A stretch of 30,151 nucleotides of DNA from IMG/VR virus record IMGVR_UViG_3300042891_000530, positions 1-30,151 of that record; one strand, 5' to 3'. The stretch is from a virus (Duplodnaviria; Caudoviricetes). Every line of letters starts with the position of its first letter. The first letter of the stretch is position 1. Shown here in pieces: positions 4,172 to 7,427 of this stretch. Under the pieces are notes generated by a model. The model searched no databases, had not been told where the DNA came from, and was given only the letters and a program-made list of their open reading frames with translations. Position numbers and translations under genes: made by a program.

Positions 4172-4200
4172 TTGACATGCACGCCCAGGCGTGCTAGAGT
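4172..4200 (+). promoter_or_regulatory. Strong sigma70 promoter of the tRNA array
   Basis: TTGACA-N17-TAGAGT with extended -10 TG; 11 nt before tRNA-His. Confidence 0.8.
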
Positions 4201-4211
4201 TCAGTTTCTGC

Positions 4212-4284
4212 GGTGGTCGGGTGTTAGTACGCAGCATCGGCCGTGACCCGATCCTACTGGGAGCAAAACCCAGCGATCACCCCA
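4212..4284 (+). tRNA. tRNA-His(GTG)
   Basis: G-1:C73 8-bp acceptor, ATCGG-CCGTGAC-CCGAT anticodon arm, T-loop AGCAAAA, CCA. Confidence 0.85.
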
Positions 4285-4290
4285 AATTTC

Positions 4291-4376
4291 GTGTCGTTAG
4301 CCAGGGACGGACCCTGACCAGGCTGTAAATCTGGTGCCTTATGGCCTGCTTGGTTCGACTCCAAGACGATGCACCA
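4291..4376 (+). tRNA. tRNA-Tyr(GTA)
   Basis: CCAGG-CTGTAAA-TCTGG, long variable arm, TTCGA T-loop, ACCA. Confidence 0.9.
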
Positions 4377-4382
4377 AACAAT

Positions 4383-4452
4383 GGGTTGTGCTCAGGGAGC
4401 AGCGGAGCCTCCAAATCTCTGCAGCAAGGTTCGAGTCCTTGACAATCTGCCA
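4383..4452 (+). tRNA. tRNA-Trp(CCA), compact D-arm
   Basis: Loop CTCCAAA, CAAGG-TTCGAGT-CCTTG, GCCA. Confidence 0.8.
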
Positions 4453-4467
4453 ACTCAGTGCTACTAT

Positions 4468-4543
4468 TGATCTGTGGGTTGCTGGTATCCCAGTGACGCT
4501 CTGAACGTCGCCCACGCAGGTTCGATCCCTGCCGGATCATCCA
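4468..4543 (+). tRNA. tRNA-Gln(CTG)
   Basis: TGATCTG/CGGATCA acceptor, TGACG-CTCTGAA-CGTCG, TCCA. Confidence 0.9.
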
Positions 4544-4614
4544 AGCGCAGGCTTTTCGGTTCGCCCTCCATTGTCCTACGGGGCCGTGGTCACTAAAAGA
4601 ACCGTACGTCTTCT

Positions 4615-4703
4615 GGATGGTTATGCAGGCTGGGCCTGCCACGGTCTTGAAAACCGATGGAGTCCTCCGGGGCTTGGAGTTCGATTCTATCAGCCATCCG
4701 CCA
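4615..4703 (+). tRNA. tRNA-Ser(TGA)
   Basis: GGATGGT/GCCATCC, loop CTTGAAA, long variable arm, GCCA. Confidence 0.9.
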
Positions 4704-4707
4704 TTTT

Positions 4708-4782
4708 GGGCCTTCCGGGAGTTAGTCCCGGACTGCTGCGAGGGCAGCAGAAAGCGTTAGCCAGCATGCTTCCGGCCCGCCA
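4708..4782 (+). ncRNA. tRNA-sized four-way-junction RNA ending in GCCA, no anticodon loop
   Basis: GGGCC/GGCCC-G-CCA closing three hairpins: TCCGGGA/TCCCGGA, CTGCTGC/GCAGCAG and AAGCGT/ATGCTT. Confidence 0.65.
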
Positions 4783-4786
4783 TTTT

Positions 4787-4862
4787 ACGCCTATAGCTCA
4801 GAGAACAGAGCAGAGGGCTTCTACCCCTCAGTGCGTGGGTTTGAATCCTACTAGGCGTGCCA
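4787..4862 (+). tRNA. tRNA-Arg(TCT)
   Basis: GAGGG-CTTCTAC-CCCTC, T-loop TTTGAAT, GCCA. Confidence 0.9.
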
Positions 4863-4867
4863 TTTAT

Positions 4868-4943
4868 GCCCATTGCCCGAGGGAATTCGGGAGCGACGCT
4901 ACGAACGTCGACTGCGTAGGCTCGACTCCTACAGTGGGTGCCA
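4868..4943 (+). tRNA. tRNA-Arg(ACG)
   Basis: CGACG-CTACGAA-CGTCG, GTAGG-CTCGACT-CCTAC, GCCA. Confidence 0.85.
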
Positions 4944-4947
4944 ATTC

Positions 4948-5022
4948 GCGGCTTTAGCTGAGACAGATTAGCGGCTGGCTGAAAACCAGCAAAGCTAGGT
5001 GCGATACCTAGAGGCTGCACCA
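4948..5022 (+). tRNA. tRNA-Phe(GAA)
   Basis: GCTGG-CTGAAAA-CCAGC, T-loop TGCGATA, ACCA. Confidence 0.9.
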
Positions 5023-5027
5023 ATATT

Positions 5028-5104
5028 CGGCCCAGGAGGTTACTAGACAGCCTACCTGGCTCTTACCCAGTGATGTCTGAGTGCGAGACTCAGTGGGCCG
5101 ACCA
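5028..5104 (+). tRNA. tRNA-Lys(CTT)
   Basis: CGGCCCA/TGGGCCG, loop CTCTTAC, T-loop TGCGAGA, ACCA. Confidence 0.85.
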
Positions 5105-5108
5105 ATTT

Positions 5109-5201
5109 AGTCCTGTGGTGTAAAGCAGCACGGACGGACTTATAAGCCGTATTCCGCCAGATTAGCGGGCAGTCTCGGTGCGAGTCCGAGCAGGACGACC
5201 A
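5109..5201 (+). tRNA. tRNA-Ile(TAT) with long variable arm
   Basis: GTCCTG/CAGGAC acceptor, loop CTTATAA, V-arm TCCGC-CAGATTA-GCGGG, T-loop TGCGAGT, ACCA. Confidence 0.8.
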
Positions 5202-5207
5202 GACAAT

Positions 5208-5282
5208 GGTTCGTGATGCGACTGGTGTCGCAGGAAAGCTGTCTACTTTCTGAGACGAGTTCAATTCTCGTACGAATCGCCA
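5208..5282 (+). tRNA. tRNA-Asp(GTC)
   Basis: GAAAG-CTGTCTA-CTTTC, TTCAA T-loop, GCCA. Confidence 0.9.
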
Positions 5283-5286
5283 ATGT

Positions 5287-5362
5287 AGGCCCTTAACTCA
5301 GCGGGACAGAGACTCGCCTTTTAAGCGAAGTGATGTCGGTTCGATTCCGACAGGGCCAACCA
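5287..5362 (+). tRNA. tRNA-Lys(TTT)
   Basis: TCGC-CTTTTAA-GCGA, GTCGG-TTCGATT-CCGAC, ACCA. Confidence 0.88.
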
Positions 5363-5368
5363 GACTAT

Positions 5369-5442
5369 GCACCGTTGCGTCCGGTGACGCATGTGGGCTT
5401 TCAACCCACAATAGATCGGATCGACACCGATACGGTGTGCCA
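5369..5442 (+). tRNA. tRNA-Glu(TTC)
   Basis: GTGGG-CTTTCAA-CCCAC, T-loop ATCGACA, GCCA. Confidence 0.88.
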
Positions 5443-5447
5443 ATTAC

Positions 5448-5522
5448 GGGCTGTGGGCAGGGCACCCAGGCAATCCTTGCAAGATTGCAGCTTGGTGAGT
5501 TCGAGTCTCACACGGTCCACCA
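5448..5522 (+). tRNA. tRNA-Ala(TGC)
   Basis: G3:U70 identity pair, CAATC-CTTGCAA-GATTG, ACCA. Confidence 0.9.
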
Positions 5523-5587
5523 GAAACACACCCGGCCACGCCTCTACCGCAGGGCGGATATGCGCATCAGGGCCGGGTCTTTCACCA
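5523..5587 (+). ncRNA. Small structured RNA ending in ACCA, not a cloverleaf
   Basis: GAAA..ACCCGGCC pairs with GGCCGGGT.TTTC followed by ACCA; two small internal hairpins. Confidence 0.5.
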
Positions 5588-5599
5588 GTTAATGAATAT

Positions 5600-5673
5600 C
5601 ACGCAGTGGCCGAATGGCTAGGCACTGGATTGCAACCCCAGTCATGCAGGTCCGACCCCTGTCTGCGTGTCCA
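5600..5673 (+). tRNA. tRNA-Cys(GCA)
   Basis: CACGCAG/CTGCGTG, loop TTGCAAC, U73, CCA. Confidence 0.88.
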
Positions 5674-5679
5674 CTTTAT

Positions 5680-5763
5680 GCCCTGCTGGTGGAACAGCAG
5701 ACACACTGCGCTTAGAACGCAGCGACGCAAGTCGTACAGGTGCAACTCCTGTGCAGGGTACCA
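5680..5763 (+). tRNA. tRNA-Leu(TAG)
   Basis: CTGCG-CTTAGAA-CGCAG, V-arm CGAC-GCAA-GTCG, T-loop TGCAACT, ACCA. Confidence 0.9.
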
Positions 5764-5767
5764 ATTT

Positions 5768-5844
5768 CGACGTGTGATGGGAATAGCAGACCTCCCTAGC
5801 TCAAACCTAGGGGCTTGTAGGTGCAACTCCTACCATGTCGACCA
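5768..5844 (+). tRNA. tRNA-Leu(CAA), short variable loop
   Basis: CCTAG-CTCAAAC-CTAGG, T-loop TGCAACT, ACCA. Confidence 0.85.
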
Positions 5845-5850
5845 CTTTAT

Positions 5851-5927
5851 AGCGGAATGTGCGAAGATGGATTCGCTCCGGGCTCATAACCCGGCCAAGG
5901 CTGGATCGTTACCAGCTTCCGCTACCA
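5851..5927 (+). tRNA. tRNA-Met(CAT), initiator-like
   Basis: CCGGG-CTCATAA-CCCGG (three consecutive G-C pairs), xGCGG acceptor with weak A1:U72, ACCA. Confidence 0.88.
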
Positions 5928-5930
5928 AAC

Positions 5931-6043
5931 TAGGGCCGAGTCAGGCGAAAGCCCAACCAACGCCCGAGGTCCGCCGTAGTCACGAGGCGCTAATCGGGAC
6001 TTTGAATTGCGAGACGAGTCGCTTGCCCCAGGCAGCGCCCCTA
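5931..6043 (+). ncRNA. Putative multibranched structured RNA
   Basis: TAGGG/CCCTA closing stem, GGC-GAAA-GCC GNRA hairpin, CCCGA/TCGGG enclosing CGCC/GGCG, and GCGA/TCGC and TGCC/GGCA hairpins. Confidence 0.45.
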
Positions 6044-6058
6044 CATGCTCCAATCGCC

Positions 6059-6112
6059 CGGGCAGGTGTGGCGTAATATCCCTGCGCATGGGCATGCGTT
6101 AAATGCCCGCCA
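6059..6112 (+). ncRNA. Small structured RNA ending in GCCA
   Basis: GGGCA/TGCCC-G-CCA terminal stem with internal GCGCAT/ATGCGT hairpin; ends 1 nt before tRNA-Pro. Confidence 0.45.
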
Positions 6113-6113
6113 T

Positions 6114-6190
6114 CAGCCTGTTACGAGAAAGGGCAATCGTCCTGGCTTGGAACCAGGTACATGCAGGTTCGAGTCCTGCCGGGCTGACCA
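6114..6190 (+). tRNA. tRNA-Pro(TGG)
   Basis: C1:G72, CCTGG-CTTGGAA-CCAGG, ACCA. Confidence 0.9.
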
Positions 6191-6197
6191 ATTCAAC

Positions 6198-6272
6198 ACC
6201 AGTGTAGCTCAAGTAGAAGAGCGCTCGGCTGATAACCGAGGGATGCAGGGGCAGTTCCTGACTCTGGTACCA
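6198..6272 (+). tRNA. tRNA-Ile(GAT)
   Basis: CTCGG-CTGATAA-CCGAG, atypical T-loop GGCAGTT, ACCA. Confidence 0.85.
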
Positions 6273-6277
6273 CTTTC

Positions 6278-6354
6278 GCCCCCTAAGCATTGATAGCGAT
6301 GCAGCCGCCTTGTAAGCGGCAGACGGCCCGTGCAAGTCGAGGCAGGCGGCACCA
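6278..6354 (+). tRNA. tRNA-Thr(TGT)
   Basis: GCCGC-CTTGTAA-GCGGC, T-loop TGCAAGT, ACCA. Confidence 0.85.
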
Positions 6355-6359
6355 ATCAT

Positions 6360-6447
6360 GGATGGCTAACCCAGCAGGGCTGGGAGCCGGTTGCTAACCG
6401 AACTGGACCCTTCGGGGTCTGTGTTTCGAGTACACAGCCATCCGCCA
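6360..6447 (+). tRNA. tRNA-Ser(GCT)
   Basis: GGATGGC/GCCATCC, loop TTGCTAA, long V-arm with TTCG loop, GCCA. Confidence 0.88.
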
Positions 6448-6453
6448 CTTGTC

Positions 6454-6526
6454 GCGGGTACGCACGAGGCGTGCCGCCAGGTTTCCACCCTGTGCAGAGA
6501 GGGTTCGATTCCCTCTATCCGCTCCA
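6454..6526 (+). tRNA. tRNA-Gly(TCC)
   Basis: GCGGGTA/TATCCGC, loop TTTCCAC, U73, CCA. Confidence 0.88.
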
Positions 6527-6573
6527 TTACGCAGTGTAGTACGTATTTTTGAAATACGCACTAAATGCTGTAT

Positions 6574-6644
6574 GCCTTGGCCGTTGGACGGCAGCGGCTC
6601 TTACAAGGCTGCATGAGTCAGTTCGATCCTGACACAGGGTACCA
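6574..6644 (+). tRNA. tRNA-Val(TAC), compact D-arm
   Basis: CGGCT-CTTACAA-GGCTG, TTCGA T-loop, ACCA. Confidence 0.78.
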
Positions 6645-6648
6645 CTTT

Positions 6649-6722
6649 TGATCCTTCGTCTAATAGTAGGACGCCAGGCTTTGACCCTGGGAATCTACGT
6701 GCGAGTCGTAGAGGATCATCCA
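6649..6722 (+). tRNA. tRNA-Gln(TTG)
   Basis: TGATCCT/AGGATCA, CCAGG-CTTTGAC-CCTGG, T-loop TGCGAGT, TCCA. Confidence 0.9.
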
Positions 6723-6728
6723 TCTTAT

Positions 6729-6803
6729 TGTCATGAACGCACAAGGTGTGCGGCTCCGCTGTTAACGGATGCGAGCTAGGTTCGATTCCTAGCGTGACAG
6801 CCA
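6729..6803 (+). tRNA. tRNA-Asn(GTT)
   Basis: TGTCATG/CGTGACA, loop CTGTTAA, GCCA. Confidence 0.9.
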
Positions 6804-6807
6804 ATTC

Positions 6808-6880
6808 GCGGAGTTGGTCAAGGCGACCGGCATCGTTGCCAACGAGGCATAGACGGGTTCGATTCCCGTATTCCGCTCCA
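6808..6880 (+). tRNA. tRNA-Gly(GCC)
   Basis: GCGGAGT/ATTCCGC, loop TTGCCAA, U73, CCA. Confidence 0.88.
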
Positions 6881-7074: not shown

Positions 7075-7427
7075 TGGGGCTTCCTACTGCGGTTACATAC
7101 GGAGACACAACGTACCCACTCGTCGGCGTGCCTATCGACACGACCGGATCGGGTGATTTCACGCTTGTGCCTGCGGAAGCGGGCAAGGTCATCAAGATGT
7201 GGCGCGTGTTCGTCGTAGCAACTGTTGCTACCGAATTCCGCTGGAAGTCTGGTGCTGCCAACTCGCTATCAGGCAACCTGCCCATTCCGTCAGGTGCCGC
7301 GTTTGTGCTGGACGTAGGGCAGGCTCCGTGGTTTACCACGCTGCCAGGCGAGGCTTTGGTGCTTAACAACGCCACTGCAAGCGACCTAAACGGTATGCTA
7401 GCGTACACTGTCGAGCCGGCCTACTAA
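7074..7427 (+). CDS. Hypothetical beta-rich protein, probably virion-associated
   Basis: TAATG coupling at both ends; Thr/Val/Gly-rich. Confidence 0.7.
   Translation: MGLPTAVTYGDTTYPLVGVPIDTTGSGDFTLVPAEAGKVIKMWRVFVVATVATEFRWKSGAANSLSGNLPIPSGAAFVLDVGQAPWFTTLPGEALVLNNATASDLNGMLAYTVEPAY

Follow-up and report, generated by a model that had tools for sequence, protein, structure and literature searches.

The closest published kind to the RNA described here is the pair of T4 RNAs RNAC and RNAD, non-tRNA small RNA units in a phage tRNA region whose role is unknown (PMC3014915). The YrlA and Y RNAs (RF02553) resemble tRNAs that have no anticodon; in YrlA a Ro60-binding module accompanies the D and T arms, and the Ro60 gene lies near (PMC4201824, available in part, as are all sources so marked below). 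Bacterial Y RNAs also occur in phages, and among them are some that RNase P cuts and that acquire a CCA tail (PMC4201824, in part). tRNAs themselves, together with the 8/4 and 9/3 allo-tRNAs (RF00005; PMC5389517, in part), set a standard of length, four-arm order, discriminator, CCA end, and operon slot. Finally, RNase P, toxSAS, and MenT1 all recognise minihelices, synthetic constructs that offer a short helix and NCCA (PMC11143913; bioRxiv 10.1101/2024.07.05.602228; PMC10435456; all in part). Element X, which lies in the tRNA operon of an uncultured phage, recalls each of these kinds and departs from each.

The source is an uncultured podovirus-like phage of ~43 kb. The window (the whole stretch of DNA that was analysed, 30,151 nucleotides) carries genes for terminase, portal, major capsid protein, lysozyme, and amidoligase. 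A second record of 43,269 bases, about 99.9% identical to the window, supplies the rest of the phage, including a sigma-70-like protein, primase, helicase, and DNA polymerase A. The closest cultured terminase matches have <37% identity. Many of the operon tRNAs are easily missed: default ARAGORN finds 17 of the 27 and Rfam 9, while relaxed ARAGORN finds 22 and the rest were recognised by fold and inspection. The features needed for what follows are these, the internal parts of X coming from fold prediction:

4172..4200, + strand: sigma-70-like promoter site just before the operon, 10/12, with extended -10 TG (consensus match only)
4213..6880, + strand: tRNA operon, 27 tRNAs that all encode their CCA and together cover the 20 amino acids
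4615..4703, + strand: tRNA-Ser(UGA), upstream neighbour of X, with an 8-bp acceptor stem
4704..4707, + strand: U4 leader or spacer between tRNA-Ser and X, so that position -1 of X is U
4708..4782, + strand: element X, a tRNA-like acceptor end on a predicted four-way-junction RNA
4708..4712, + strand: 5' strand of P1, partner 4774-4778, pairs G1-C, G2-C, G3-C, C4-G, C5-G
4714..4732, + strand: P2 hairpin, 7 bp, 5-nt loop
4733..4750, + strand: P3 hairpin, 7 bp, tetraloop, no gap to P2
4752..4771, + strand: P4 hairpin, 6 bp, 8-nt loop without T-loop consensus
4774..4782, + strand: 3' strand of P1, discriminator G4779, and encoded CCA 4780-4782 (RCCA motif)
4783..4786, + strand: U4 trailer or spacer between X and tRNA-Arg(UCU)
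4787..4862, + strand: tRNA-Arg(UCU), downstream neighbour of X

Sigma-70-like sites numbered 4, compared with 2.5 +/- 1.3 in shuffles. A second such site, at 4439-4467 (+), has its -35 within tRNA-Trp, while its extended -10 takes up the spacer that, at 15 nt, is longer than usual; transcription from this site would begin within tRNA-Gln. The operon has other peculiarities. Both tRNA-Ser genes (4615-4703 and 6360-6447) have 8-bp acceptor stems, in this resembling the 8/4 tRNA-Ser known from phages (PMC5389517, in part). A tRNA with a UAU anticodon, found in the window at 5109-5201 and in L202 at 7184-7277, has a long variable arm, an A1.G72 mismatch, and A73, and its identity may be other than Ile. 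Several tRNAs have G55 T-loops (4948-5201, 5680-5844, 6279-6354, 6649-6722), and the tRNA-Leu(CAA) at 5768-5844 is short-armed. Open reading frames run over X at 4571-4957 (+) and 4757-5023 (-); we rejected both as genes because they overlap tRNA genes and have no Pfam match.

X is 75 nt long and occupies one tRNA-sized slot between tRNA-Ser(UGA) and tRNA-Arg(UCU), directly preceding the two tRNA-Arg genes. TTTT stands on both sides of it, and the spacers between adjoining tRNAs in the operon measure 4-7 nt, apart from a single one of 15 nt. From its 5' end, the element runs through the 5 bp of P1, one U, P2, P3, one A, P4, CC, the return strand of P1, and G-CCA. P1 consists of five G-C pairs and is then interrupted by a U.C mismatch, short of the 7 bp (or 8/9 bp) of a tRNA acceptor stem, and the discriminator and CCA extend from a paired 5' end as they do in tRNAs. 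The sequence-only reading had delimited X at 4708..4782, with tRNA-like 4-nt T-rich spacing, and had described a 5-bp terminal stem with discriminator G and CCA, two 7-bp hairpins, and one 6-bp hairpin; the TTTT flanks and the predicted fold agree with that description throughout, the hairpins being P2, P3, and P4. Among the predicted pairs, 24 of 25 are Watson-Crick and one is G.U, every pair has a probability of at least 0.75, and the fold is retained when X is folded together with its neighbours. The minimum free energy is -40.5 kcal/mol (z -3.97), a stability equalled in none of 200 shuffles, and a second, independent set of shuffles gave z -3.31. We also asked how often a gap takes the geometry of this slot, i.e., a CCA no more than 8 nt before the next tRNA and a Watson-Crick terminal stem of at least 5 bp that begins no more than 8 nt after the previous tRNA; with these thresholds, which were picked after the data were seen, 202 of 200,000 gap shuffles (~0.1%) did so. 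X is a genuine, non-random, uncatalogued unit.

How far, then, does X resemble a tRNA? ARAGORN makes no call at X. Of the six 7-nt loops that X could form, none has U33. Formally, P2 would allow a 7-nt loop centred on UUA, again without U33, and as X has no T-loop either, we ruled out P2 as an ochre suppressor. The P4 loop lacks the T-loop consensus, and a T-loop-like pentamer of the type used by several operon tRNAs lies at X positions 30-34, buried in the P3 stem. The sequence-only reading was thus right that X has no anticodon loop and, as regards P4, no T-loop consensus. It had also depended on X belonging to no known Rfam family, and the Rfam scan gave no match at E ≤ 10, with the tRNA covariance model (RF00005) included. 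Its term "tRNA mimic" suits the acceptor end and does not extend to the elbow and anticodon features, which are absent.

The same features separate X from the described kinds. Unlike tRNAs and allo-tRNAs, it has a 5-bp acceptor, a 2-nt linker to a 6-bp last arm, and no U33 anticodon loop, T-loop, or D-loop GG. YrlA (RF02553) has no match at X, which has no module with D and T arms; X further differs from YrlA in lacking a T-loop and any Rfam match, and a search for TROVE (Ro60) found no match among the 63 phage ORFs scanned with Pfam. In contrast to T4 RNAC and RNAD, X is a compact predicted four-way junction of 75 nt, known from sequence alone, and blastn of phage records found no sequence homology to the T4 RNAs. 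Whereas minihelix substrates are synthetic, X is genomic, with a branched body and a stem sequence unlike the FaRel2 determinants. No repeat family of X was found in the operon, where it is single copy, as opposed to the tandem repeats of type III and AbiF RNAs. By the features tested, X is not a tRNA, an allo-tRNA, a YrlA, or a type III antitoxin.

The near-identical records L001 and L003 carry X unchanged, and elsewhere in the operon each departs from the window at a single position. Related phages were collected via capsid and terminase alignments, with a metagenome terminase scan that covered 24 of 64 parts, and nine other operons with at least five tRNAs were obtained (L017, L020, L094, L142, L174, L202, L388, L401, and L422). 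X is absent from all nine by blastn, nhmmer, and covariance model. Blastn against 50,697 phage records gave three partial matches only (E ≥ 0.7), and blastn against plasmids gave short chance matches only; over L001-L452, blastn and nhmmer found full-length matches to X itself only. The exact P3 pattern occurs at five loci in viral contigs, two being X itself and three lying in unrelated contexts. A gapped acceptor pattern, run over 16 of 64 collection parts, gave 119 loci, and tRNA context was seen only for two copies of X and two true tRNA-Arg. A single-sequence covariance model of X searched against 100 sources (1.41 Mb) returned X itself and matches at E 2.7 and 3.2, and against whole records it gave 0 of 50 at E ≤ 0.1, with no positive control among the 50. 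With filters off, at eight loci, its best match was L388 629-696 on the minus strand (24.4 bits, rough E 0.0015); we rejected this as a homologue because the match is antisense to a tRNA-like RNA of 154 nt, lacks a CCA, and has a fold unlike that of X. The covarying homologues for which the sequence-only reading had proposed an Infernal search thus did not appear: BLAST, patterns, and the covariance model yielded no divergent homologue, and for this reason there is no evidence of selection on P1, G73, or the CCA. A literature search that covered few subscription papers found no account of X or of RNA decoys for CCA-targeting toxins. tRNA-like candidates from IMG/VR are reported in PMC10690425 (in part), and four contig sample ids were absent from six of its supplementary files.

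Other CCA-ended RNAs that are not tRNAs occur in related operons, at L174 7193-7260, L094 807-908, L142 6702-6777, L388 633-786, and, in L422, 1088-1192, 2247-2313, and 2476-2522; beside X, the window has Y1 (5523-5587) and Z (ends 6112). Those of the related operons are 47-184 nt long, with differing bodies, and are mutually unrelated. In a census of 30 hand-curated non-tRNA gaps from 10 related operons, which omits ORF-bearing gaps, gaps <40 nt, and both L142 6702-6777 and L388 633-786 (ahead of the first tRNA), a CCA falls within 8 nt of the next tRNA in 8 gaps, compared with 4.1 expected (P 0.046); without X there are 7 (P about 0.11). A closed stem fills the slot in 2 of the 30, compared with 0.04 expected. 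Perfect hairpins are frequent in the spacers of these operons. The class of CCA-ended non-tRNAs is real, and its enrichment is modest.

Several of these RNAs and spacers have further features. Y1, on the + strand, is a second CCA-ended non-tRNA (z -2.4), for which we found no full-length phage match. Its 5532-5577 portion aligns weakly with the Rfam abiF RNA (22 bits where the gathering score is 37; E 1.2 over 3.2 kb and 0.029 in a post-hoc search of 79 bases). Judged by its sequence, Y1 would be a better candidate antitoxin mimic than X, though single-copy and below threshold. Element Z (window 5928-6113, +) has relatives at L017 37-96 and L020 1242-1302, with a conserved core in which 20 nt are invariant within about 35 and a pseudoknot is possible. 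After the core comes a terminal hairpin that varies in sequence and keeps its pairing, followed by G; the CCA is encoded in the window and L017 and not in L020. Z has no Rfam match and no cultured-phage match; having homologues, it may merit separate study. The RNA at L388 633-786 (+), which heads its tRNA operon, is 154 nt long (z -4.7), with a 7-bp acceptor, a D-like arm, a T-arm, ACCA, and a multibranch domain in place of the anticodon arm. By inspection, the tRNA-Cys at L094 506-583 apparently has a 9-bp acceptor and a 3-bp T stem, and it has no encoded CCA. A motif of about 14 nt is common to the CCA-less spacers L202 5651-5746 and L401 424-505, both of which precede tRNA-Arg(ACG) and are possibly another conserved RNA. 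Lastly, a spacer between tRNAs at L102 2477-2550 has a motif that may resemble the helix-8 loop conserved in SRP RNA.

Position and anatomy give good support for X as a tRNA-ended, processed non-coding RNA. The same position and anatomy support the earlier proposal of a processed tRNA-like RNA, the processing itself being what we infer from them, and X is likely a discrete RNA released by host tRNA processing. X would probably be co-transcribed from the operon promoter and released. By established tRNA processing, an RNase P cut at the 5' side of the next tRNA, with 3' trimming back to the CCA, would yield the CCA end of X, however X itself folds. At the other end, U-1, G+1/C, and RCCA would permit 5' cutting. 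The determinants of bacterial RNase P include RCCA, N-1, and G+1/C+72, and the enzyme also cuts non-tRNA substrates, including the phage M3 and C4 RNAs (PMC11143913, in part). The 12-bp ruler and the T-loop contact of RNase P are missing from X. Chen et al. ascribed the lack of cleavage of some Y RNAs to a missing 7-bp stem (PMC4201824, in part), and by analogy X, with a 5-bp stem and no T-loop, may be a poor RNase P substrate.

Once released, X would be mostly uncharged and unable to decode, because arginine identity requires A20 and C35 (PMC9976931, in part) and X has no anticodon loop. Arginine charging of X is therefore unlikely. Serine charging is possible but doubtful: X has the G1-C72, G2-C71, and G73 of a serine-accepting mimic, but the tertiary core is absent.

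What might such an RNA do? Our main reading, to which we give a probability of roughly one in three, is that X acts as an uncharged decoy of the tRNA acceptor end and titrates CCA-targeting toxins (toxSAS, MenT), since X keeps the part of a tRNA that these toxins read. In this last and weakest step of the proposed mechanism, the exposed CCA-3'OH and five pairs of X would titrate host defence enzymes, namely, toxSAS pyrophosphokinases and MenT/AbiEii nucleotidyltransferases, and its hairpins would stabilise the RNA and give anticodon nucleases no target. In structural models, toxSAS touch the CCA together with acceptor pairs one to five; minihelices are modified by FaRel2, and toxSAS specificities differ (bioRxiv 10.1101/2024.07.05.602228, in part). 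MenT1 modifies an isolated acceptor stem (PMC10435456, in part). A decoy for tRNA-targeting toxins, as suggested in the sequence-only reading, would fit these modes of recognition. The X acceptor has exactly five pairs, the number contacted in the toxSAS modelling. We also count in favour of a decoy that the operon already covers 20 amino acids. The five 3' acceptor bases of X recur in only two of 222 tRNA calls, both tRNA-Arg with G73 and both ascertained, having been retrieved by a pattern built on the X stem. Against a decoy, X has one of the four FaRel2 determinant pairs, and the 27 real tRNAs already provide many CCA ends, to which one extra unit adds little unless X binds better or persists uncharged. 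In addition, CCA-ending of non-tRNA gaps is weakly enriched, and Z has no CCA in L020. The negative search for divergent homologues and the short stem, possibly ill suited to RNase P, also count against it. It is unlikely, in our estimation, that the decoy reading can be widened to the clade, with its phages filling tRNA slots with diverse CCA-ended RNAs and X serving as a minimal RNA anti-defence decoy rather than a replacement tRNA.

It is possible, on the low side of possible, that X is instead a small RNA with an unrelated job, a passenger of the operon whose loops bind protein or RNA and whose stem and CCA are only a maturation or stability tag. The many unrelated CCA-ended RNAs of related operons would fit this, as would the three of four X helices that are not tRNA-like in sequence. 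There are also precedents, as CCA and a tRNA fold have been proposed to protect YrlA from nucleases (PMC4201824, in part), and T4 RNAC and RNAD derive from a tRNA region (PMC3014915). However, no conserved loop is demonstrable in X, the longest stretch it shares with the rest of the genome, both strands considered, is 11 nt, and the phage ORFs scanned revealed no partner gene.

Rather unlikely is a remodelled or decayed tRNA gene, e.g., a third tRNA-Arg or one of Cys or Ser type, with little or no present function. X does have tRNA length and four-arm order, and its acceptor equals, in all five pairs and G73, that of two phage tRNA-Arg. The best global match is the tRNA-Cys of L094, whose D and anticodon arms align with P2 and P3. 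Moreover, perfect hairpins are common in operon spacers, and no related operon holds an X homologue. Yet the likeness to 173 phage tRNAs falls short of significance: its score is reached by 17 of 300 randomisations that preserve the structure, or by 46 of 300 with the acceptor fixed. There is no tRNA covariance-model score at E ≤ 10, and canonical pairing at 25 of 25 positions is not expected from decay. By sequence, descent of X from a tRNA gene is plausible, and such an origin is compatible with a new function.

We consider it very unlikely that X is a D-armless type II tRNA mimic that accepts serine, with P3 as the variable arm, acting as an amino-acid carrier for a non-ribosomal reaction or as bait for charged-tRNA toxins. 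By inspection, P3 is placed like a variable arm, i.e., as an arm of 7 bp with a tetraloop, immediately ahead of the last arm; X has G1-C, G2-C, and G73 and follows a tRNA-Ser. The aminoacyl-donor role suggested in the sequence-only reading is unsupported, in that no aminoacyl-transferase or synthetase gene or family was detected among the phage ORFs scanned, and the phage amidoligase, a member of an ATP-dependent family, also counts against this reading. Serine identity is independent of the anticodon and rests on the variable arm, but E. coli SerRS reads tertiary structure (PMC9976931, in part), and in X the acceptor is limited to 5 bp and a D/T core is absent.

A purely cis-acting part, as a processing or folding spacer, is highly improbable: X does fold on its own in context, but most operon tRNA pairs need only 4-7 nt, and the spacer after the Ser(UGA) orthologue of L094 is a different one that lacks a CCA. 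Mimicry of a type III or AbiF RNA antitoxin, also suggested from the sequence, is scarcely tenable, for although X is a small structured phage RNA whose P2 and P4 loops have 5-bp complementarity and could form a pseudoknot, that complementarity has P 0.093 by chance, X is single copy with no repeat and no Rfam match, it has no A-rich pseudoknot loop, a type III antitoxin feature (PMC12283969, in part), and PADLOC found no defence-system gene among 23 phage ORFs.

X is a singleton, which limits its value, and units like it are invisible to ARAGORN and Rfam. Phages beat tRNA-targeting defences by supplying resistant tRNAs. If the decoy reading of X is true, an RNA that does not decode, and of a tRNA retains just the portion that CCA-targeting toxins recognise, would be a different anti-defence strategy. 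It would also give a handle on an old question, i.e., what job is done by the non-tRNA RNAs in phage tRNA clusters, such as T4 RNAC and RNAD.
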